Source of the DNA: a virus
Taxonomy: Duplodnaviria > Heunggongvirae > Uroviricota > Caudoviricetes
Reading direction: 5' to 3' (one strand)
DNA length: 13,618 bases
IMG/VR virus record: IMGVR_UViG_3300028532_000077
The notes beneath the pieces are model-generated. The model made no database searches, was not told where the DNA came from, and worked only from the letters and a program-made list of their open reading frames with translations. Positions 1,626 to 13,501 of this stretch are shown here, piece by piece. The first letter of the stretch is position 1. Each line of letters starts with the position of its first letter. Made by a program: the position numbers and the translations under genes.

Positions 1626-2282
1626 TTATTTCACTTCTCCGTCATACGTCGGAAGGGTGTCTTTAGTGGTGCTGGCTGTTCCTGCATTGGTTGGCACTCG
1701 GCTTTTTACCTGTCCGCCTGTGCTCTTAGGTGATGCGGTCTTTATAGCAATAGCGTTAGTAGTTGCATAACTCACTAATCTTATCTGTTCGAACTGCAAA
1801 TCAAACTGTAAAGCTGATTCTGTTTTATATTCGTAGTCAATGCCTGTCAGAATCATATTATCAAACGTCTTATGCTCTGTGCTTACAATAATAGGCTGTC
1901 TGGCATTCATTATTTCATCAAGATAAGCAATAGCCTGTGAACACCTGTTACCGTTCACCCCTGCACTTGATAGCATATCACCACGTAATGCTAATGGTGT
2001 TTCTGTAATAATGCCTGAAAGCATAAGTTTATTATTCTTGATCCTGACATTATCAGATACATCATTACCATCCTGCACAGGATACGATGTAACATCGGCA
2101 GAACGTGAAACCTTAGTTGCCGGAACAGCGTCAAAAGTAATAGCTTTATAACTGGCTATCGTTGATGCATTTTCGTTATTCAGGTTGCTACATATAATGG
2201 CAAATCCGTTATCAGATTTAACCTTGCTGTTAGATGTATTAATGTTAGATGTGCTGTTGATCTGACTTTCTTTGATAGCCAT
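1626..2282 (-). CDS. Hypothetical protein (218 aa), last gene of the virion-like operon; possible minor structural protein
   Basis: Long ORF with AAGGA Shine-Dalgarno about 10 nt upstream of ATG; lies 73 nt downstream of the 633-aa gene on the same strand; Ser/Thr/Asn-rich sequence with no recognisable catalytic motif. Confidence 0.7.
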   Translation of the reverse strand: MAIKESQINSTSNINTSNSKVKSDNGFAIICSNLNNENASTIASYKAITFDAVPATKVSRSADVTSYPVQDGNDVSDNVRIKNNKLMLSGIITETPLALRGDMLSSAGVNGNRCSQAIAYLDEIMNARQPIIVSTEHKTFDNMILTGIDYEYKTESALQFDLQFEQIRLVSYATTNAIAIKTASPKSTGGQVKSRVPTNAGTASTTKDTLPTYDGEVK

Positions 2283-2355
2283 TTATATTAATCCTTGTGT
2301 AATGAGCGGAAAGCAATAAATATTGCCCCCGCTTTATTATTAGTTATCGTTAAAC

Positions 2356-4257
2356 TTAGTTAACGCTACTCTGTCCTGACAACGTGCTAAGAATCAGATT
2401 CGAACTAAACTGATTGTTGTTCGCTCTGATCTCAGTGCGGATTAAATCCTGAAAGCCGGGACCGTTAGGGATGACGTTAACAGAGATCATATCACTCGGC
2501 ACCGTAACCTGTGCATTCACGTTAACAGGAGTTGCGTATTGACGTTGTAGGCTTACAGTCGGCTGATAGGCTTCTGCTTTACGTGCAACAAGGGTTGATC
2601 CGTAGCTGTTAGCATTGCCATTAATTAAATCAGTCCACCACCCTGGAACGCCGGACTGTGTTTCCTCACCGCGCACAATACGCCCTACATCTTTCGTATC
2701 GAGTCCAGTTGCATAACGAATACCTTCATTGATAATCGTTGATGGCGACCATTCCCCATCTGTAACAGCGTCCATAACCTTTTGTGTCTCAGGTCTGTTA
2801 TCATTCTCACCACGGCTAAGATGTTTATTAATCCAGCTTGTGATTTGATTCCCGTAAGAAGTCATAGAGGTCAGTAATACAGCGCCTTGTTTAGCCAAAT
2901 CCCCGAACGATGCACCAACACCATAAGCTGCATTCTGTAAGGCTTTGCTTTCTTCCGGTTTGAGTGCTGGCATGTTGGCTATGCCATCAAAGAAGCCCAA
3001 AATAGCCTGATTCGATAGTCCATCTGTCAGACGGTCAAAGGCTGTAGCTGTCTTGTTAGCTGCGCGATATTGCTCTTTCTGTGCTTCTGTCAGTAGCTGC
3101 CCGTTGTTTTCCATATCAACCATCGTTTTACGGAACTCTTCCCCATCACGGGAAAACATCTTGAGATAATGGCTGGCATCGTCTGCTAATGGTTCGATCA
3201 GGGATATGATGGCTTCTTTAGTCATTCCTCGGCGTTCACCTTCTCTCACCACGTCTTGCAGGAGTTGCAGCGGTCGCCCCTGGTAGGAAGCTATCTTATC
3301 TTTGTTCCATGCAAAGGCATTCTGAATATCATTTAATGATCCTTCCCCGCCTCGCCACTCTTTTTTCTTACTATCCCATTCAGCAGTTCGGCTTTGATGA
3401 CCAATGCGTTCGTTTAAGTCTTTGATATTGTCAGTGGTCTTGTCCACGCTTGCACTTGATACACCGTTTGCCCTCCCCCAATTAACCATTGCAGCCACCT
3501 GGTTGGAGTCTGCGCCTACCAGATCGCTCATCTTCTGCAATTCCATACGTTCACGGGCTTTTTCCATTCCAGCAGATACAGCCATACTTCCTAAGCCAAC
3601 GGCAGCGCCGCCGATAATGCCACCAACACCGCCCATCATTAACGCGCCACCGCCGCTAACACCTTCTTTGTGGAGCTTCTTAGAAGTAACTGGATATACA
3701 CCCCCAGCGGCAGCATTACGACGCGTAGCAGCGGCTGCGGCTCGTCTTTCTAATGTGATGCGGTCACGGATCAGGGCATTCATCTTCGCTTGCGATATAG
3801 CGCCGGATTCATAGAGGCGGGTTTGTTCCTTAATGTAACGTAGAGCATCGTGATATTTCTTAATATCCATCCCTTCGCCATAGCGGGAATTGTTCTTGAT
3901 GCCTTGTAACTGGCGATATGATGCAAGGCGCTTGATCTCTGCCTTTTCAGCAATTGAGGCTTGTTTAGCCTGTGCTTTAGCGAGGTTTTTAGCTTCCTGT
4001 AGCTTCTGTTTAGTGCTGGCTTTAGATGCCTGTGTCTCAGATTTAACAGCCCGCTTAACATGCTGATCATGCTGGCGCTGAATCTCTTTTCCCAGCCTCT
4101 GTAAATCTTTCTGACGTGCTGCCGCCACTTGCACAGGTTTGATCCCCTGCATCTTCTTTTGTAGCTTATCCACTTCATTCTTAGCTTTCTGTAAGCTCTT
4201 GAAATCAGTGGTAAATGTCACAACATTACTAATTCGTGAGGCGGTAATTTCTAACAT
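2356..4257 (-). CDS. Coiled-coil / glycine-zipper protein (633 aa), tape-measure-like or ejection-protein-like
   Basis: N-terminal ~170 aa are K/Q/A/E-rich heptad-like (LQKAKNEVDKLQKK..., KQKLQEAKNLAKAQAKQ); central hydrophobic Gly-rich segment GGGALMMGGVGGIIGGAAVGLGSMAVSAGM as seen in phage tape-measure and pilot/ejection proteins; no enzymatic motif recognised. Confidence 0.75.
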   Translation of the reverse strand: MLEITASRISNVVTFTTDFKSLQKAKNEVDKLQKKMQGIKPVQVAAARQKDLQRLGKEIQRQHDQHVKRAVKSETQASKASTKQKLQEAKNLAKAQAKQASIAEKAEIKRLASYRQLQGIKNNSRYGEGMDIKKYHDALRYIKEQTRLYESGAISQAKMNALIRDRITLERRAAAAATRRNAAAGGVYPVTSKKLHKEGVSGGGALMMGGVGGIIGGAAVGLGSMAVSAGMEKARERMELQKMSDLVGADSNQVAAMVNWGRANGVSSASVDKTTDNIKDLNERIGHQSRTAEWDSKKKEWRGGEGSLNDIQNAFAWNKDKIASYQGRPLQLLQDVVREGERRGMTKEAIISLIEPLADDASHYLKMFSRDGEEFRKTMVDMENNGQLLTEAQKEQYRAANKTATAFDRLTDGLSNQAILGFFDGIANMPALKPEESKALQNAAYGVGASFGDLAKQGAVLLTSMTSYGNQITSWINKHLSRGENDNRPETQKVMDAVTDGEWSPSTIINEGIRYATGLDTKDVGRIVRGEETQSGVPGWWTDLINGNANSYGSTLVARKAEAYQPTVSLQRQYATPVNVNAQVTVPSDMISVNVIPNGPGFQDLIRTEIRANNNQFSSNLILSTLSGQSSVN

Positions 4258-4640: not shown

Positions 4641-5672
4641 TTACGCAGCAGATCCGAAGATGATAGCTTGCGGAATGTTGTTTACTGGCAGATAAGATGT
4701 CTCAGTAACCACAGATGGGAATTGGAATTCATCCTTGATTAGATATTGGTGATGCAACACGGCATCTTGACCTAACTCAGCATGACGCACACCAACGCCG
4801 CTATGAAGCTGGTAACACTGTGCCGCTTTATCCATTACCGGAACAATTGCGAAACCGTTCTCTCCGATGTGAGCAACAATCTCAGGAAACATTGACACAT
4901 CAATAACAGTGATCCCACCAATCTGGAAAGAGTCATAGGCTGGGTTAGAATCAACCATACGGGTAAACAGGGCCGTAGCACTCGCATCACCTGCATATTT
5001 CACCATGTCACTGATCAGCGGGTTAGATGACAAACCATCAGCAGCAGCGCCAGCAGCAAAGATAATTACACCAGTTCGCTTTGCAGCAAGACCAGACCCC
5101 AGCTTTTCACTCTGTAAGCGCACCGCTTTACGAATAGCAAGGAACGGGTTAACAGTAGTCGATGCAAAGTCGATAGCGGGTACCGTGGTTTTAGCCTGAC
5201 CGTCGAGGAAGTCGAGATCACCTTGTCCGGCATATTCAGATTCAACTTTCAGTCCCAGCAGCGCGGTAATCAGATCCACTTCAACACGGTTTGCGTGTGA
5301 ACGGTAATGAGCCTCAGAGAAATCATTAACCGCTACCAGCATAGCATCAGAACGGTTTGGATATTGGCGGCTGTATTGTTCCAGGTCACGAGAAGTAACA
5401 GCGTTAATACTGCCGACGTGTTTCATCTGGAAAAGTTTGTTTGACCATTCCTGACGTTTAGAAGCGTTCCAGTCGCTTTGAGCGTAAGGCGAGGTTTCCC
5501 CGGCTACCTGCACAAACTGCTCAATCAGGTCGGTAAGAAGAATGCTGTTTTCTGTATGATATTGCACATCGAACAGATCGAGATTAGTAATCAGGGTATT
5601 AAGTGCATTCTCATAAGCAAATGGAGTTACTACCGCAGTATTAACGCCAAAATATGTTGATAAATCATTCAT
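4641..5672 (-). CDS. Putative major capsid-like protein (343 aa)
   Basis: Size and position match the major capsid gene of lambda-like head modules (about 340 aa, immediately after an about 120-aa gene); AAGGAAAATAAT RBS; mixed alpha/beta composition with no nucleotide-binding or catalytic motif. Assignment is from context only. Confidence 0.6.
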   Translation of the reverse strand: MNDLSTYFGVNTAVVTPFAYENALNTLITNLDLFDVQYHTENSILLTDLIEQFVQVAGETSPYAQSDWNASKRQEWSNKLFQMKHVGSINAVTSRDLEQYSRQYPNRSDAMLVAVNDFSEAHYRSHANRVEVDLITALLGLKVESEYAGQGDLDFLDGQAKTTVPAIDFASTTVNPFLAIRKAVRLQSEKLGSGLAAKRTGVIIFAAGAAADGLSSNPLISDMVKYAGDASATALFTRMVDSNPAYDSFQIGGITVIDVSMFPEIVAHIGENGFAIVPVMDKAAQCYQLHSGVGVRHAELGQDAVLHHQYLIKDEFQFPSVVTETSYLPVNNIPQAIIFGSAA

Positions 5673-6272: not shown

Positions 6273-7266
6273 AAATAACGTTCCTGTTAGTGCCAGACAA
6301 ATAAAAAGCCCCAATGCCGTAAGAGGTTAATTCTGACCAGCAAAGGGGCTTTAACGTGCGGGCAATTACATAATTGATAAGTTAAACTATAAGAGGATTA
6401 AACATATCAGCAAATACACTTTTTAAATATACTTGATGATATGCTTAAAGAGTGAATATCAGACCTTAGAAAGGAAGGCTCTTAGGAGTTTGCCACTGGA
6501 ATCACTAAGATCTGATATTCTGGGTGCGGTGGCTAACCGCTGCCTGTTTTTGCTGTGGATGCAACAAAGTAAGGCTTTAAGGAATCACTATTCCAATTCT
6601 CATCTACTCACAGATCAAATTTTAATAGGATTAACTACACCAACAATAATCTACCGTTTCAGAAAAAGCGTTTTTACAACCAAAGATTATAGATTTGCAG
6701 TCTATAAAACCCGTTTTGCTATCAATATTTCCAAAGGTTATTGCACAATTCTTAGCTAAACTCTCTACTTGCGGCTAACGCTACGCAGATGATAGTTTTT
6801 TGACAACAACTTAATAGATTATTCTGTTACTAACTTCTGTCATTAAATAAGAGTTTAATGATGTTAGTAAATAGTTATAAAATATAACTATCAGTGTAAG
6901 GCTCTTTAATGTTTTCGGACAAAATAAGGAGCTTTAGGATAAGCATAGATGAAAAATAAGAGCGGGAAGGGCAAGGAGATAACACCTACCCGCTTTTATC
7001 AAAATTAAGCACAATGCCTAACAACATTCATCAACACAACGTAGAAACAATCAACAATCAAAGAGGGAGTTATGATTATTCTAAAACTTCTTGAGAGATG
7101 GAAGGTAATATTTGTTAGAGGTTAATGCCACTCAACCCTTGAGGCTATCACCTTCCATATGCAGGGATTTATGACAGTAGAAGGATTAACACCAGTCAAA
7201 ACCTTTTTATCTACCCCTAATATCATTATATAATGAAATCGCTATAAATGCAAATGATTTTCATTG

Positions 7267-7575
7267 TCATTTAGAGAAAATAGCACTTTTTGCTAAATCA
7301 TCTACTAATTGCTGAATCTCTTCACTTGCAGCCTTTAACGTGCTGGCGGTGTCTGTGATGGTTTGAGTACACAGCCTGACATCGTCCTTAGATAGCTCTA
7401 AATCGCTCACCAGAGAGATGAAATCGTCAAGGCTTACATTCACCTTCATTAAGCTACTAACGCATTGAGAGAGCGTGTAATCGCATAAATCTGAATAGGC
7501 TTGATTGATACGTGTCTGTAGGGCGATCATCCGATCCGAAAGAGTGTCCATAACTTCCAGAATGTTGTCTGTCAT
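7267..7575 (-). CDS. Hypothetical small acidic helical protein (102 aa)
   Basis: ATG overlaps the stop of the upstream ORF (ATGA coupling at 7572-7575); AGGAG upstream; no motif recognised. Confidence 0.65.
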   Translation of the reverse strand: MTDNILEVMDTLSDRMIALQTRINQAYSDLCDYTLSQCVSSLMKVNVSLDDFISLVSDLELSKDDVRLCTQTITDTASTLKAASEEIQQLVDDLAKSAIFSK

Positions 7576-7844
7576 TGTGCAATCTCTCCTTGATCTGCTG
7601 ATTCCATCTCTTGCTGAATCTGTTTAGCCTTGTTTAGTGCAATCTGTAGCGGTATACGATAGGTTGCAATGTCATCCAGCACATCATCAAGCAAGGCAAA
7701 ATCATTTTCTTCTTTTGCTCGTTCAGCCAGTGAAATAAACACTTCTGCAAGTTGTTTTGCTTCTTTAAAAAATGTTGTTTCTAATAGTTGATAGTTAATC
7801 ATTATTTTTCCTTTTTCGATTATTTTCATTGGGCGCTTATACAT
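7572..7844 (-). CDS. Hypothetical small helical protein (90 aa; likely true start at 7802, 76 aa)
   Basis: In-frame ATG at 7802 has a good AAGGA RBS at 7-nt spacing, whereas the ATG at 7844 has GGGAG only 1 nt away; translationally coupled to the downstream 102-aa ORF. Confidence 0.65.
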   Translation of the reverse strand: MYKRPMKIIEKGKIMINYQLLETTFFKEAKQLAEVFISLAERAKEENDFALLDDVLDDIATYRIPLQIALNKAKQIQQEMESADQGEIAQ

Positions 7845-7859
7845 ACTCCCATCATTTTA

Positions 7860-8243
7860 TTAGTTAGAACGTTTGTTAGAAGCTAATGTATCTTCTAAAT
7901 GAGCCATCAGATCGACTTCCGATGCACCACCTACACAATTATTGAAAGCGTTAAATCCCAAAAAATGATGATAGGAGCTAAACCCTAAAAGTTGCCAACG
8001 CTTCAGAGTGCCATCAGAAATTATTGTTTGTTTTCTTGTTCTTGGGCGAAAGTAAACGCCTGGCATTGACTGGATTATTTCTAATTCTTTATTACTTAAT
8101 TCAGGGGATTCTATTTCAAGAATAAATATTATCTCTTCCCCTGGAATTTCATTATTGGTATGTGTCGGTGGACGTTGTCTTTTTGAATTGAAATTACTGT
8201 TTTTTTCAATACGTTTTAAGTTATTCTTTTTCTTTCTTCCCAT
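7860..8243 (-). CDS. Hypothetical protein with basic N-terminus (127 aa)
   Basis: GAGGG RBS 5 nt upstream of ATG; N-terminus MGRKKKNNLKRIEKNSNFNSKRQR is strongly basic (possible nucleic-acid binding); no catalytic motif recognised. Confidence 0.65.
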   Translation of the reverse strand: MGRKKKNNLKRIEKNSNFNSKRQRPPTHTNNEIPGEEIIFILEIESPELSNKELEIIQSMPGVYFRPRTRKQTIISDGTLKRWQLLGFSSYHHFLGFNAFNNCVGGASEVDLMAHLEDTLASNKRSN

Positions 8244-8378
8244 TTTCCCTCTTTTTATGTGGATTATAAAAACTTAATGCCATAGTTACGATGAATATCG
8301 CCATAAATGCACTTGCCATATGTATTGCCCGATCTGTTGTTACTGATTGTTTGTGATGTTATAAATCATTTATTCTCC

Positions 8379-9047
8379 TTAGAATGGTATTGAATCGTAT
8401 ATTTCACTTTTTTCTCTTAGAGATATTATCAGATCGTGAAAAGCCTGTTTCTCAAGATAGATATTCTTTGAATCTAATGCTCGTTTTACAAAATCTTCTG
8501 TTTCTTCGTGCGGTGGTTTCTTCTTATCAAGGGAAAGAAGCCAAGTAAAAATTTCGGGCCGCTCAGGGAACTCTGATTCCTGTGTTTCTTCTTCAATGAT
8601 GATTTCTGAAACATTCAATATTTCATTAGATTCGTCTTCTTTCTCAGAAGGATCAGGTAGTGATGACTCTCCAGGGGGAGTAATATGTGCATCTGTGAAT
8701 GGTAATGCTTTATAGAGTGATGTTTGCCCGTCCCGAGCCTCTACAGAAAGAACTCCCATATCAACAAACATATTTATAATATTGCGAACCTGGCGATCAC
8801 TAACCATTCCAATATTAGATAATGTTTTTTGAGTGGCGTAACATTCTTGCCCTTGTTCATTGAATCCAGCTATATAGCTATAGATTTCAACGGCTGGCAG
8901 TGTAGCGGTGTATTCATTACCTGACGGTGAGAACCACTTTTTAAACATCTTCAACCACTGCTCAACGACTACATATTTTTGTTTACCATCTTTCTGATTT
9001 AGACATTTGGCTTTCGCTTCGGCAATTGTTTTGATATTTTTGATCAT
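8379..9047 (-). CDS. Winged-HTH DNA-binding protein (222 aa), candidate replication initiator or regulator
   Basis: Strong AGGAGG RBS before ATG 9047; segment YATQKTLSNIGMVSDRQVRNIINMFVDMGVLSVEARDGQTSLY has the pattern of a winged helix-turn-helix; acidic C-terminal tail (EDESNEILNVSEIIIEEETQESE). Confidence 0.75.
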   Translation of the reverse strand: MIKNIKTIAEAKAKCLNQKDGKQKYVVVEQWLKMFKKWFSPSGNEYTATLPAVEIYSYIAGFNEQGQECYATQKTLSNIGMVSDRQVRNIINMFVDMGVLSVEARDGQTSLYKALPFTDAHITPPGESSLPDPSEKEDESNEILNVSEIIIEEETQESEFPERPEIFTWLLSLDKKKPPHEETEDFVKRALDSKNIYLEKQAFHDLIISLREKSEIYDSIPF

Positions 9048-9171
9048 TTAGTTCCTCCTTTGTAAGGACTGTAATTAGTAATTCATTAACAAGTTTTGGA
9101 ATTGATTTCCCTTCTGCCTTTGCACGATTTAACAACGCGTTATAAGTTGCAGAATCAAAATTAATATTCAT
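8983..9171 (-). CDS. Ribbon-helix-helix (CopG/Arc-like) DNA-binding protein (62 aa)
   Basis: MNINFDSATYNALLNRAKAEGKSIPKLVNELLITVL fits the beta-strand then two-helix RHH pattern; GGAGAAGGAG RBS; 3' end overlaps the start of the wHTH gene by 65 nt in another frame. Confidence 0.65.
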   Translation of the reverse strand: MNINFDSATYNALLNRAKAEGKSIPKLVNELLITVLTKEELNDQKYQNNCRSESQMSKSERW

Positions 9172-9194
9172 TTGGTTTTCTCCTTCTCCTGTTA

Positions 9195-9371
9195 TTATTC
9201 TTTCTCTGCTTTACGCAGTTCATCAATAATTTTTAGTGCATCGTCAAAACATTTTTCACGCTCTGGATAACCACAGCGTCGCGCTGTGTTCCTATTCATT
9301 CTTACCCTAAAGCGGTTGATCTCACCACGTTTCCAGGCTTCAACTACATCTTGAGAAGTGAAATACTTCAC
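9195..9371 (-). CDS. Small hypothetical protein (58 aa, GTG start), first gene of the regulatory operon; not in the supplied ORF track
   Basis: GTG at 9371..9369 preceded by a perfect AGGAGG at about 8 nt; in-frame to TAA at 9197..9195; basic protein (…RFRVRMNRNTARRCGYPERE…). Confidence 0.5.
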   Translation of the reverse strand: MKYFTSQDVVEAWKRGEINRFRVRMNRNTARRCGYPEREKCFDDALKIIDELRKAEKE

Positions 9372-9494
9372 TAATTAACCTCCTATTCTATTTGGTTAAA
9401 AGAAAAAGACACCTTGCAAGCCTCTTGGGCTTCAAAGTGCGGTGCATTGGTTTAATTATTTAGAGGATAGGAATGTTTTCCTGCCCCTAATATT

Positions 9495-9523
9495 ACTTTA
9501 CCATAACTAAAGGCTTTTGTCAA
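9495..9523 (-). promoter_or_regulatory. Candidate sigma70 promoter for the leftward regulatory operon
   Basis: On the minus strand: TTGACA (9523..9518), 17-bp spacer, TAAAGT (9500..9495); about 120 nt upstream of the GTG at 9371. Confidence 0.4.
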
Positions 9524-9787
9524 CCCCCACCCATAAAATATTGATCATTTTTCAGTATGTTATGATTTTGCTTAGCAATTCGTGCTCTTCTGTGTGATGC
9601 TATTCTTCCTTATTCTCTAAAACGCGTTCTAACGAGGTTTTGATAAAAACAATACATTCCCTTATGTAATGACAGTTTAGCTCGCCTACGGCTTGATTTA
9701 AGCGGTAGAAACTTATTTAACCTTCAACTACTAAAACCATTCTTTTTTGTTTGTTGTTGGTTGTTGTCTGTGTCTATGTGCTAACAT

Positions 9788-10060
9788 CGCTAACGCGTAG
9801 CACACAAGGTTATTGCACTCGTCAGAGTATTGCACAATAGATTTTCTCTTAAATAGATTGATGATCGTTAGATTGGCGTAAGCCTCATCAATGGAACTAT
9901 TGAAGCGCACAGCGCATAGACACTAACAACCATTCGCTTACGCTCAGGTTATTGCACAAGTAAATTTCAATCGTTAGATGGTAGTTAGTTAATTATCGTT
10001 CTGCGCACAGCGCAAGACTATTTAGCCTTACGCAAGCCGTAGGCTATTTGCACATAGTAG
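9788..10060. repeat. Modular imperfect tandem duplication (about 100-bp period) with recurring short motifs
   Basis: TCGTTAGAT at 9865 and 9971; GCGCACAGCGCA at 9905 and 10003; GGTTATTGCAC at 9808 and 9947 with variants at 9827 and 10043; GCTAACGC at 9788. Confidence 0.6.
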
Positions 10061-10200
10061 ATTACATATTCGTTGTGAGCGGCATTAGCGAACATAGATC
10101 TACTAACTAACATCAACAAACAAAAACTATGTGTTATGACAAGCAGTCTAACGACTAACACTCTAACTTGTGCAAGGTTCTGGCGAATGCCAATAGATTA

Positions 10201-10235
10201 AGGGATAGTCGTTAGACTCCCTAACGGGTATCCCT
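10201..10235. repeat. Nested perfect inverted repeat (stem-loop)
   Basis: AGGGATA gt CGTTAG actcc CTAACG gg TATCCCT: outer 7-bp and inner 6-bp perfect stems; followed by about 60 bp of AT-rich DNA (10236-10295). Confidence 0.6.
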
Positions 10236-10295
10236 ATAATTATTCTTATAAAGATAAAAAAGAATTATATTATATAGTTTAATTGTAGTATTGTC

Positions 10296-10394
10296 GGAAA
10301 TCATTTCCTAGGTGATAGGAACTCATTTCCTAGGTAGGTAGGAAACCACTTCCACGGTTATTTCCTAAATAGATCGGAACTCATTTCCCAGGTG
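10296..10394. repeat. Iteron-like array: four 19-bp direct repeats, each with internal dyad symmetry
   Basis: GGAAATCATTTCCTAGGTG (10296), GGAACTCATTTCCTAGGTA (10318), GGAAACCACTTCCACGGTT (10341), GGAACTCATTTCCCAGGTG (10376); spacing 22, 23 and 35 bp; each copy contains GGAA-N5-TTCC. Confidence 0.7.
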
Positions 10395-10860
10395 TTATTT
10401 ATACTTATCGGGTATCAGACTTGATAGGGGTAGCTCACAGTGACCTACCGTTACATCCAATCATCACATAACATCTGTGCAATGATCTTCTAAAAGTGTT
10501 TCTTGCTACCAAAATTAAACATCTAAAACAGGCTTAAATTCAATGTAATTGATGATTAATCCCTGTGTAATTCCTACGTAAAAATCCAATGAAAAGTAGC
10601 TTAAAAAGTGCAATGTTAGCTTTCTTCACTTTTGCGTCATCATCAGCAAAGCCTTATGTTATGCGGCATATAGCGCATCACTGCAAAATTGTTGCTCAAT
10701 AAACGTTCTATCATTTGTCGAACAAGTTCTTTCACGTGTTGAAAATTTATGTTTAAATTTGCTTTCAATCTTTAATGTGCAATCACTATCAACATAAAAA
10801 TAAAAAACCTTCTATTATATTTCATAGCATACAAAAGTCAATAGAAGCCCTCTCGTGCTC

Positions 10861-11244
10861 CTACGTAAAAAATCCACCACTTTTCCCCTTATACATCAAC
10901 TCAAGGCGTTCTATGTGTTCCTTAGTGCATATTACGATTATTATGTTAAATGGATTTTGGACTATATTTTGACCTGCACCCGCATAAACACTGGTTTCAT
11001 CGCTTACAGCCCTTGTGAGACGTGGTGCTGTTTCTAGCATCTGATCCGACATAAAACCGATCATTCTCGTGTTTAGTGAAAGTTTAGTGAGATACATTAC
11101 AGAAAGGCTTTCTGTGTAATGATTTAATAGGTAAAAACGATGTTGATTACGCAAGAAAATTCCTTGCTGATATTTGGGGATTCTGGATTTTCCAGATCGG
11201 GGGGCGGTGAAAATCGCGTTAAGCACTTCTCGCAATCTAGCCAT
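10861..11244 (-). CDS. Questionable ORF (127 aa)
   Basis: Open frame only; no purine-rich RBS before the ATG (CCCTTCCC context); translation has no recognisable features. Listed because nothing else occupies this interval. Confidence 0.2.
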   Translation of the reverse strand: MARLREVLNAIFTAPRSGKSRIPKYQQGIFLRNQHRFYLLNHYTESLSVMYLTKLSLNTRMIGFMSDQMLETAPRLTRAVSDETSVYAGAGQNIVQNPFNIIIVICTKEHIERLELMYKGKSGGFFT

Positions 11245-11260
11245 AAGGGAAGGGATAAAG

Positions 11261-11300
11261 GTATTTAGATGTATTTATAGCTATTTATGGCTATTTATTT
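11261..11300. repeat. Four tandem 10-bp AT-rich repeats (helical phasing)
   Basis: GTATTTAGAT / GTATTTATAG / CTATTTATGG / CTATTTATTT in exact 10-bp register. Confidence 0.5.
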
Positions 11301-11460
11301 TTTATTTACCTTAATTTAAAAATAGCCTTATAAATCAATAAGATACAGGACTATCTGTTTATATTTTGATCAATTAAATCAAGTTTAATACCCTTAAACC
11401 ACCTGAAAATAACCTTAAATACCCCAATAATTAATTTTAACGATTCCTGTGCTCTCTCCT

Positions 11461-11531
11461 ACTTTGCAAAAAGGCAAAAAAGCCCATAGAGGCACAAAAA
11501 TATTAAAACCAATAACTCAATAATGCCTCTA
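11461..11531 (-). terminator. Putative terminator downstream of the 183-aa gene
   Basis: Perfect 8-bp inverted repeat TAGAGGCA (11487-11494) / TGCCTCTA (11524-11531); on the minus strand the hairpin is followed by a U-rich tract (GGGCUUUUUUGCCUUUUUGC). The 29-nt loop is long, so only moderate support. Confidence 0.35.
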
Positions 11532-11549
11532 CAAGAGCTTCTCTAACTG

Positions 11550-12101
11550 TTATTTTTGATTGAGCTTACATCGATCCCATTGTTCTGTCGTTCTTGTGAT
11601 ACGATCGCTTATTGCAAAATTTAATAGCCAAGAATCATAAGCATAAACCTTGCTTTTATCATCTGCCATCATAAACTTGCCGTTAGCATTCAGTTTTGGC
11701 GATATCAAATATGTTCCATTTAATCTGTTAGCCTTGAAGCTATCTGCATATAAAGTTACTTGTGCGTATCCCTGAACACGTAATGCCCCTAAACGTCCGT
11801 TTTCGATTGATGCAATAGAGTATTGGCAAAGATAATTTTTGGCAGCAGGAGTCGTTTTCACTCCTTCAGTTTTTCGTGAATTATTTGATTGCGAGCTTCG
11901 AATAGAGGATGAAGGATAAGAGTATGAATGATTTTTATAAGATGAAGGGGCATAAGAGCCAATCCGGCACGTCTTACCAACAGCTATACACGAGTTACCA
12001 CAAGGTATTCCTTTTTTGCAGTTTTTAGCAACTGCGGTAGAAGTTCCCCCTACAAACAACGTTGTAAAAATCATCATCCTCACAAATGCAGACCTGCGCA
12101 T
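11550..12101 (-). CDS. Secreted Cys-motif protein of unknown function (183 aa)
   Basis: Strong GGGAGG RBS 5 nt before ATG; N-terminal signal peptide (MRRSAFVRMMIFTTLFVGGTSTAVA, Ala-x-Ala cleavage context); mature N-terminus C-KKGIP-C-GNS-C-IAVGKT-C has four spaced cysteines; then a Ser/Tyr-rich linker. Confidence 0.8.
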   Translation of the reverse strand: MRRSAFVRMMIFTTLFVGGTSTAVAKNCKKGIPCGNSCIAVGKTCRIGSYAPSSYKNHSYSYPSSSIRSSQSNNSRKTEGVKTTPAAKNYLCQYSIASIENGRLGALRVQGYAQVTLYADSFKANRLNGTYLISPKLNANGKFMMADDKSKVYAYDSWLLNFAISDRITRTTEQWDRCKLNQK

Positions 12102-12873: not shown

Positions 12874-13481
12874 CGTGTGCCTCTGTATTCATATGAAAAT
12901 TAACAAGTTACATACTACACAGGGAGACTACGCATAAAACACAATACAAGTAAAGATACATTTTCAAGACAATAGGAGCCATAAAGCGCCTTTGATGGGC
13001 TACCCCAAAAAATAAGCGCCGTAGGCGTATCCACTAAAAAGGGCTTTTTCACAAAAGCTATGAAGTCTTAGCAGTTCTTCTCTTATCAGGCACCCGTTGT
13101 ACTCCGGTGGACGAAACCGTGCTAGAGCTTGATTCTTTCCCGATCAAGTTAGGTTTTGAAGAGGTGGGCTTTAATCCACTATGCACTTAAAACTACTCTT
13201 CCCATCATTTAGCCTGTTTATCCTCTGCAACGTCATCTCGACGTGTAGCATCATTGGACACCGCGCCAGGTGTGGAACATCTTGCTAAGAGTTTTGGTAG
13301 AAGGTTTAGAGACGGTGGCACGTCTTCCAGCTTCAAAGGAACTTGTTACGAGGTTGAGCCTGGGAACTACTCGCCCATACGTGTTACACTACCAAAGCCC
13401 ATAACAACGTATAGGCGTTTGTAAGTGATAACAGAAGATACAATTTCTTAGAGAAGCTAAGCTAAGTTATTGATTTTCTTG

Positions 13482-13501
13482 ATGGTGCCGATAATAGGAG
13501 T
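13482..13501. repeat. attR-type direct repeat overlapping the tRNA-Thr 3' end
   Basis: Identical to 112-131. Confidence 0.8.

Follow-up and report, generated by a model that had tools for sequence, protein, structure and literature searches.

An oriented ATT(G/A)CAC box on both sides of a putative iteron-type origin in a phage-satellite-like island of Escherichia coli

We analysed a DNA window of 13,618 nt (IMG/VR record IMGVR_UViG_3300028532_000077, Caudoviricetes), which is a 13.4-kb phage-satellite-like island integrated at tRNA-Thr of E. coli, and examined a short recurrent motif, ATTGCAC. Most of its non-coding copies lie in region B (9372 to ~11550, roughly 2 kb), upstream of a leftward regulatory operon, in a left and a right arm around a core of an AT-rich stretch and 22-bp repeats; one lies in region A (950 nt, 6273–7266), which separates this operon from a leftward structural operon. 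The motif is real and functional-looking, and our evidence assigns it to the replication module of the island, which encodes a Rep-like protein with a winged helix-turn-helix (wHTH) domain. As a tentative explanation, to which we give a probability of about 0.4, the boxes would be oriented accessory sites at an origin of the iteron type, and a factor shared by all members of the island family, either a host protein or the 58-aa island protein p58, would bind them.

ATTGCAC occurs ten times in the window against 2.77 ± 1.76 expected from dinucleotide shuffles, and none of 200 shuffles reached ten, which bears out the enrichment over background proposed in a first-pass annotation of this DNA. 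In the non-coding DNA to the right of 9371, the broader form ATT[GA]CAC occurs eight times (expected 0.73 ± 0.87; 0 of 1,000 shuffles reached eight), and AGGTTATTGCAC is the sole 12-mer found three times in the window. Exact copies of GGTTATTGCACAA at 6736–6748 and 9947–9959, which the annotation had reported, were confirmed by scanning. Its close variants at 9808, 9827 and 10043 are all present, with positions right to within 2 nt; two of them carry two mismatches, at 9808 (GGTTATTGCACTC) and at 9825 rather than 9827 (GAGTATTGCACAA). The reverse heptamers that it gave at 7577, 10477, 10608 and 10777 were also recovered, as was a reversed GTGCAA at 10170, within the left arm; its list had missed copies at 5561 (+) and 7637 (−). 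Nothing above chance was seen for the in-gene copies at 5561, 7577 and 7637. The proposed distances to the two operons hold as well, at 464 nt from 6272 and 437–576 nt from 9371.

In the window lineage the box extends to a 14-mer. The left-arm copies are AGGTTATTGCACTC (9807–9820, +), which reads ATTGCAT in a second allele and TTACAC in locus L018; AGAGTATTGCACAA (9824–9837, +), in which ATTGCACAA is invariant although the flanks diverge in the second allele; AGGTTATTGCACAA (9946–9959, +); and a degenerate copy with a 1-nt insertion, AGGCTATTTGCACA (10041–10054, +). Despite its insertion, the degenerate copy is truly homologous, because a recombinant joint in L017 and L018, TCAGGTTATTGCAC followed by ATAGT, fuses the 10041 and 9951 copies. 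In the right arm, all on the minus strand, we found ATTGCACA at 10476–10483, where the footprint CTGTG[CT]AATG is kept in diverged flanks; ATTACACA within CCCTGTGTAATTCC at 10564–10571; ATTGCAC at 10608–10614, which varies among relatives and is weakly constrained; a second ATTGCACA at 10776–10783, with a strong leftward promoter-like site (10841–10814) ~23–30 nt upstream of it; and a second ATTACACA at 11113–11120. The isolated copy in region A (6735–6748, +), which precedes the first structural gene by 464 nt, is again AGGTTATTGCACAA. Its match to region B spans exactly 14 nt (E = 0.007), and since the flanks share no homology, this copy looks like a site rather than a duplicated segment.

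Among relatives the motif generalises to ATT(G/A)CAC(A). From 47 non-redundant sites we derived the consensus aATTRCACa, whose flanks carry little information, and G/A swaps are tolerated at homologous sites (e.g., caaggttaTT(G/A)CACtcg). Enrichment of ATT[GA]CAC recurs in independent lineages, namely loci L002 (11 vs. 0.80 expected), L003 (10 vs. 0.62) and L007 (7 vs. 0.85), with 0 of 1,000 shuffles reaching the observed count in each case, as in the window (8 vs. 0.73). Orientation follows side: in 35 of the 36 family loci, plus-strand copies lie to the left and minus-strand copies to the right of the AT-rich stretch and iterons, at 440–900 nt and 1020–2500 nt from the start of the p58 gene, respectively, apart from one minus-strand copy inside the left array of L002-type loci and, in a few loci, an extra plus-strand copy at ~130 or ~2400–2560 nt; the remaining locus is L007. 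The association is significant in the window (Fisher p = 0.018) and in L002 and L003 (p = 0.024).

The word is kept where its surroundings are not. The left arms of L002, L003, L009 and 11 IMG/VR loci cannot be aligned to that of the window, and AATTACAC(G/A)A recurs there in the corresponding position, in three to five copies. When strand-specific 6-mers common to three right-arm lineages were ranked without bias, GTGTAA and TGTAAT came out on top. At a finer scale, ATTGCACAA is retained in the second allele of the left unit with flanks only ~75% identical, and CTGTG[CT]AATG and CC[CT]TGTGTAATTCC persist in right arms that have diverged elsewhere. In locus L003, a distinct island that has GmrSD and a different integrase and lacks structural genes, the genes for the Rep-like protein, a ribbon-helix-helix (RHH) protein and p58 are retained along with both arrays, which indicates that the boxes travel with the replication module.

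The Rep-like protein (8379–9047, −) has a variable N-terminal wHTH and a conserved C-terminus, and matches Pfam HTH_36, PHROG replication-initiator families and DnaD-like profiles. When these proteins were aligned from 18 loci, five unrelated N-terminal wHTH types were seen on a conserved C-terminal half, and the repeat type in the block equivalent to 10287–10430 switches exactly with the wHTH type in 18 of 18 loci: GGAAnTCATTTCC with type I, GTAAC-N5-CGTTAC-type repeats (seen in the alignment) with type II, TAACAGwwTTCTGT with type III, CTCACAGTGACCTA with type IV and GATAGGGGTA with type V. Judged from sequence, this covariation is the signature of a Rep–iteron pair, and the Rep-like protein is predicted to bind the 22-bp iterons because of it. 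The ATTGCAC cluster is unchanged with Rep types I–IV and so does not covary with the wHTH. Beside Rep there is always an RHH-like protein, in three types (a, b and c) that differ in their beta-strand residues, and all three co-occur with the same cluster. The first-pass annotation had named the wHTH and RHH proteins as possible binders of the motif; neither is likely, since the wHTH specificity domain tracks the iterons and the RHH types are unrelated to the cluster.

Two further features of the Rep-like protein can be recorded here. At least five interchangeable wHTH domains on one C-terminal half make a clean natural set of Rep–iteron specificity cassettes (loci L001–L019). The last residues of the protein are SEIYDSIPF (window 8379–8405), or KVYEDFDIPF in L002-type loci (L002 8865–8890). 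They resemble the acidic tip of E. coli single-stranded DNA-binding protein (SSB), MDFDDDIPF (PMC7913777). The Rep C-terminus may be an SSB-tail mimic that would recruit SSB-partner proteins to the origin.

p58 (58 aa; 9195–9371, −) is a candidate box binder. Alone among the small proteins, it is conserved throughout the family (60–100% identity across loci); it is found in Escherichia only and is predicted to form a three-helix bundle (predicted local distance difference test score, pLDDT, 88); comparison of this model with known structures gave no informative match. A search of genome contigs with the Rep-like protein returned two close loci only. With p58 restricted to Escherichia and so few Rep relatives, a deep phylogeny was not possible.

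The core between the arms consists of an AT-rich stretch, a presumed DNA unwinding element (10236–10291), followed by four 22-bp iterons TCGGAAnTCATTTCCTAGGT (10292–10395, +) spaced by 22, 23 and 35 nt. Degenerate units of 95–122 nt, two to three in number, contain the left-arm copies, and in each of them the blocks run ATTGCACAA, ATCGTTAGAT, GCGCACAGCGCA and CTTACGC with variable spacers. The 9946–9959 copy opens unit 2, which recombination between repeats has removed or fused in relatives. Breakpoints of such losses and fusions fall inside the repeated blocks (9799/9919, 9873/9970, 9921/10003 and 9969/10048). A clean tandem repeat was not returned by Tandem Repeats Finder (TRF) or MAFFT; the degenerate units combine blocks that are conserved with spacers that vary. 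Many relatives hold an extra unit of ~145 nt (TTTAGCTCGCC...TTTAAGGGG...) at the place of window 9675–9705 (10333–10477 in L001), so that unit number also varies in the left part of region B.

The third block, the palindrome GCGCACAGCGCA, occurs at 9905–9916 and 10003–10014; downstream of the second copy come a hairpin, a copy of the motif and GTGAGCGG. The same order is seen in relatives (a hairpin of different sequence, a TTRCAC box, then GTGAGCGG). The palindrome is kept in 36 of 36 family members, even those with unalignable left arms, and a longer form, TGCGCACAGCGCAA, is kept in 32; a different factor, one that is dimeric, probably binds it.

Taken together, these features are what we would expect if ATT(G/A)CAC(A) were an oriented, non-palindromic, cis-acting box that belongs to the replication module and not to the operons. 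In the proposed arrangement, several boxes in each arm of region B would point inward to the core, the Rep-like wHTH protein would bind the four iterons beside the AT-rich stretch, and a common factor on the boxes would help to assemble or orient the initiation complex. Enrichment, conservation, the orientation pattern, independence of Rep and RHH types and linkage to the Rep module are shown here; we infer that region B would act as an origin, that a protein would bind the boxes and what that protein would do.

Nonetheless, this interpretation needs to be taken with caution, and several observations weigh against it. In L007 two plus-strand copies lie on the right side, for which reason the orientation test is not significant there, and the reversed copy at 10170 in the left arm of the window has a counterpart in L002-type loci. 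Neighbouring boxes lie at uneven distances, 17, 122 and 96 nt in the left arm and 88, 43, 169 and 337 nt in the right arm, which sets them apart from cooperative arrays, and two copies are poorly conserved, namely 10608 and 9812 (ATTGCAT in the second allele). The structural operon has one copy in its leader, at a distance of 3.07 kb. In six relatives (L010, L017, L019, L022, L094 and L095) a plus-strand copy overlaps the spacer and −10 element of the regulatory promoter (TTGACA-N17-..CTGTGCAATAAT), which hints at a transcriptional role. Finally, the suggested origin function is drawn from the iterons, the AT-richness and the Rep-like gene, and the proposed binders of the boxes are no more than candidates.

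The last two of the sites mentioned, over the promoter and in the structural leader, would fit a single island regulator that binds the boxes and co-regulates both operons from operator or enhancer-like positions; p58 would be the protein in question, or less likely the RHH or wHTH protein. The first-pass annotation had likewise suggested that one DNA-binding protein controls both operons. What stands of that suggestion is a constrained cis element and a factor that could touch both regions, given that the 6735–6748 copy is an isolated, site-like match to region B; control by the RHH or wHTH proteins is not supported. Both leftward operons also carry a terminator-like hairpin with a U-tract directly upstream of the first gene, at 9398–9440 (−; −16.2 kcal/mol, invariant in 12 diverse loci) and at 6296–6352 (−; −30.1 kcal/mol, z = −4.5). 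These paired leader terminators suggest control by read-through in both operons, which makes a shared control step plausible.

The position of the boxes speaks against this idea. The regulatory operon has a conserved promoter at 9495–9523 (−; TTGACA-17-TAAAGT with TG upstream of the −10), whose −35 (9523–9518) is invariant in 12 diverse loci; the window carries no box in this promoter, and its cluster is 290–530 nt upstream of the −35. Region A has a single promoter-like site (7254–7225), and the copy there lies ~480 nt downstream of that site. Sites that overlap or adjoin the promoters, as expected of an operator for an island repressor, are seen in the six relatives only, and sites before both operons throughout the family are not seen. 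The region-A copy is confined to one region-A type, in the alleles GGTTATTGCACAA and GTTTATTGCACCA, neither of which tracks the region-B cluster; there is no plus-strand copy in region A of L002, L007, L008 or L009 (L008 has one minus-strand TTACAC match), and in L003 the arrays persist without a structural operon. With no covariation with wHTH or RHH types either, we regard a role as regulatory DNA sites as unlikely, though deserving of attention. As sigma-70 promoters in their own right, the boxes lack a consistent −35 or −10 partner, and they form part of an extended −10 of the regulatory promoter in some relatives only.

If the common factor of an accessory-site origin were a host protein, DnaA would come to mind, with DnaA-ATP filling low-affinity arrays on either side of the iterons and cooperating with Rep. 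The relaxed DnaA box consensus is TTWTNCACA. The motif corresponds to positions 3–9 of this consensus (TT-R-CACA), its G/A-tolerant position falling on the N, and the left-arm copies TATTGCACA agree with it at eight of nine positions. In region B of 12 loci, however, neither TTWTNCACA nor the DnaA form TTATCCACA is matched; 31 of 47 sites have A at position 2, for which DnaA requires T, and position 1 shows no bias towards T. The arrays also have no strong anchor box, and their spacing is irregular. Low-affinity binding of DnaA to the boxes is possible, and arrays of host-factor boxes in which orientation matters do occur at both ends of the origins of iteron plasmids, as DnaA boxes in P1 and RK2 (PMC4980987). 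As the explanation of the motif, we consider DnaA improbable. Among other host sites, those of MarA/Rob, NtrC, sigma-54, EcoKI and LexA type were compared by eye with consensus sequences, and none fits all copies.

The motif might instead act in RNA, as UUGUGCAAUAACCU in the leftward leaders or as AUURCACA in transcripts that converge on the core, where it could be a loading or processing site tied to read-through of the leader terminators, in the manner of nut/put or of P4 immunity. Several features would suit such an element, namely the strong terminator-like hairpins before both first genes, the place of the region-A copy within a long, highly conserved and structured leader, the strong and conserved leftward promoter at 10841–10814 that puts a copy at ~+23, and the folding of 9735–10135 (z = −3.7). 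Against it, both strands of 9735–10135 fold equally well, and plus- and minus-strand copies are complementary over only 8–9 nt. The left cluster is upstream of the conserved regulatory promoter and hence outside the regulatory leader. A search of the whole window with Rfam 15 passed the tRNA-Thr alone, with nothing in 6273–7266 or 9372–11550 at E ≤ 1, and hairpins adjoin boxes at the background level (24%). An RNA-level role therefore appears doubtful to us.

At a similarly low level of confidence stands a more elaborate proposal for the origin, in which the satellite origin would fire only when a phi92-like lytic phage infects the cell, and the boxes would serve this origin as strand-specific signals for loading or priming. 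Rep would bind the iterons, its SSB-like tail would recruit PriA, primase or parts of the phage replisome to the inward boxes, and replication would be tied to late gene expression through the extra copy in the structural leader, as in P4 ori–crr. If true, the island family would be a new one among satellites of virulent phages, with an origin architecture that is likewise new. A hairpin-then-box signal of the relaxase or primase kind was considered and rejected: several copies do follow hairpins, but the association is not significant, because 24% of random positions have a hairpin of ≥6 bp within 10 nt. One hairpin near the boxes shows two compensatory pairs between alleles.

Least probable of all is that the copies have no function and are relics of a degenerate tandem duplication (~100–120-nt units) that hitch-hike with the region, since, even though the left copies sit in homologous units whose number varies by unequal recombination and some copies decay, the word is enriched in unalignable arms and in opposite orientation across the core, the region-A copy has no flanking homology, and conserved footprints stand inside diverged flanks.

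The accessory-site origin that we prefer has to be seen in the context of the island as a whole. A 23-bp direct repeat bounds the island (109–131 and 13479–13501), its second copy lying within tRNA-Thr(CGT), and portions of the island are present in 745 of 5,426 complete E. coli genomes (~14%), at thrW or other tRNA genes. From the left, the gene order starts with a tyrosine integrase, followed by the structural operon, whose products are a Dit-like tail-tube initiator, a tape-measure-like and a capsid-like protein plus three small open reading frames (ORFs). The rightmost, promoter-proximal genes of the regulatory operon encode the Rep-like wHTH protein (222 aa), the RHH protein and p58. Region B is without annotation in every relative, and we extend it to ~11550 because RefSeq relatives do not call the ORF at 10861–11244. 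One copy of the island is found inside an IncF conjugative plasmid (L098, NZ_CP126938.1 36028–48947), with an IS3 element within region B. Our literature searches found no description of the island family or of the ATTGCAC motif.

Region A has features of its own. It is nearly invariant over ~360 nt (6790–7150) in 18 loci, and a 16-bp hairpin at 6454–6520 (−) has arms that are wholly different between two alleles with complementarity kept. This points to a structured leader or a non-coding RNA downstream of the promoter-like site at 7254–7225.

With regard to the helper, the Dit-like protein of the island is 60.5% identical to the tail tube initiator of phage PaulScherrer (Justusliebigvirus), and the tape-measure-like protein is 29% identical to the PaulScherrer tape measure (window 1626–4257 against L099 12934–15739). 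Because both proteins match PaulScherrer counterparts, the phi92-like (Stephanstirmvirinae) lytic phages look like the helpers of this island, which would be a satellite with tail-length and capsid genes of its own. The motif does not appear to be a signal of these phages. Within the 140 of 150 kb of PaulScherrer that were scanned, it occurs at 0.43 per kb vs. 3.7 in region B, the long form is absent and no 1.5-kb window holds more than four copies; the signal is also absent from a fragment of phage Mt1B1_P17, and blastn of region B against 50,697 phage records gave no match. The early promoters of PaulScherrer are of the ordinary sigma-70 type.

Other parts of the module do recur in phages. 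In Mt1B1_P17, gp053 (L013 19634–20620) consists of the island Rep type III domain and then the type I domain (93% nucleotide identity), with an unrelated C-terminus, and the RHH gene of the island is also present in PaulScherrer (bas60_0101, L012 19968–20153; 98% nucleotide identity). These phage-borne Rep domains and RHH gene could be decoys against the satellite or the source of satellite domains. Furthermore, a hairpin, GCGGGAAATGGTTTCCCGC, occurs in six PaulScherrer early-gene leaders (L012 27708, 30321, 31202, 33510, 35244 and 36103), and its core, GGAAACCATTTCC, resembles the type I iteron of the island (GGAAACCACTTCC / GGAAATCATTTCC).

The island family is common and unannotated, and its apparent helpers, the phi92-like lytic phages, are used in phage therapy collections. 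Sorting origin words from switch words would be a first step towards a mini-replicon, the trigger of the island and the interference between island and phage. With a second, invariant box recognised beside the Rep–iteron cassettes, its binder can now be searched for directly.

Several known systems invite comparison with the boxes. Omega, the RHH protein of pSM19035, binds contiguous arrays of the heptad WATCACW, direct and inverted, at promoters. The island resembles this system in having a polar 7-bp subsite that ends in CAC and an RHH gene that adjoins region B, but its boxes are dispersed and the RHH type varies where the box does not. Like lambda nut and HK022 put, one short element stands before two operons that each start with a terminator; unlike them, the boxes have no boxA/boxB-like structure, and the main cluster lies upstream of the conserved promoter, outside the transcript. 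As in the Rep iterons of pPS10, R6K, F and lambda ori, repeats stand beside an AT-rich stretch in a Rep-encoding module. The boxes differ from such iterons in their core of 7–8 nt (14 nt in the window lineage), in occurring in both orientations and in not covarying with Rep, and it is the 22-bp repeats at 10292–10395 that have the length (17–22 bp), helical spacing and Rep covariation typical of iterons.

A further comparison is with satellite phage P4, whose ori and crr act together in replication as cis elements and contain type I repeats, an octamer (TGTTCACC) bound by the alpha protein within direct repeats of ~120 bp. In the island, too, a short word is carried in repeated units (95–122 nt) and is met again kilobases away (3.07 kb) as an exact 14-mer. 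That distant copy is single and specific to one subfamily, unlike in P4, and the island has no alpha-type primase-helicase and uses separate iterons for Rep, with initiator specificity tracking the 22-bp repeats. P1 oriR and RK2 oriV share with region B an iteron block, an AT-rich element and a second, shorter, oriented box grouped on both sides, a box for another factor whose position and orientation matter in the plasmids (PMC4980987); the island boxes differ from the DnaA boxes of P1 and RK2 in misfitting the consensus at positions 1 and 2, in having no canonical member and in being spaced by tens to hundreds of nt. By analogy, the boxes might work as do the DnaA-box arrays that flank the P1 origin or the type I repeats that link P4 ori and crr. 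Inward boxes that flank an iteron core would thus be an arrangement known in kind from P1 and RK2, and one that recalls P4 ori/crr.

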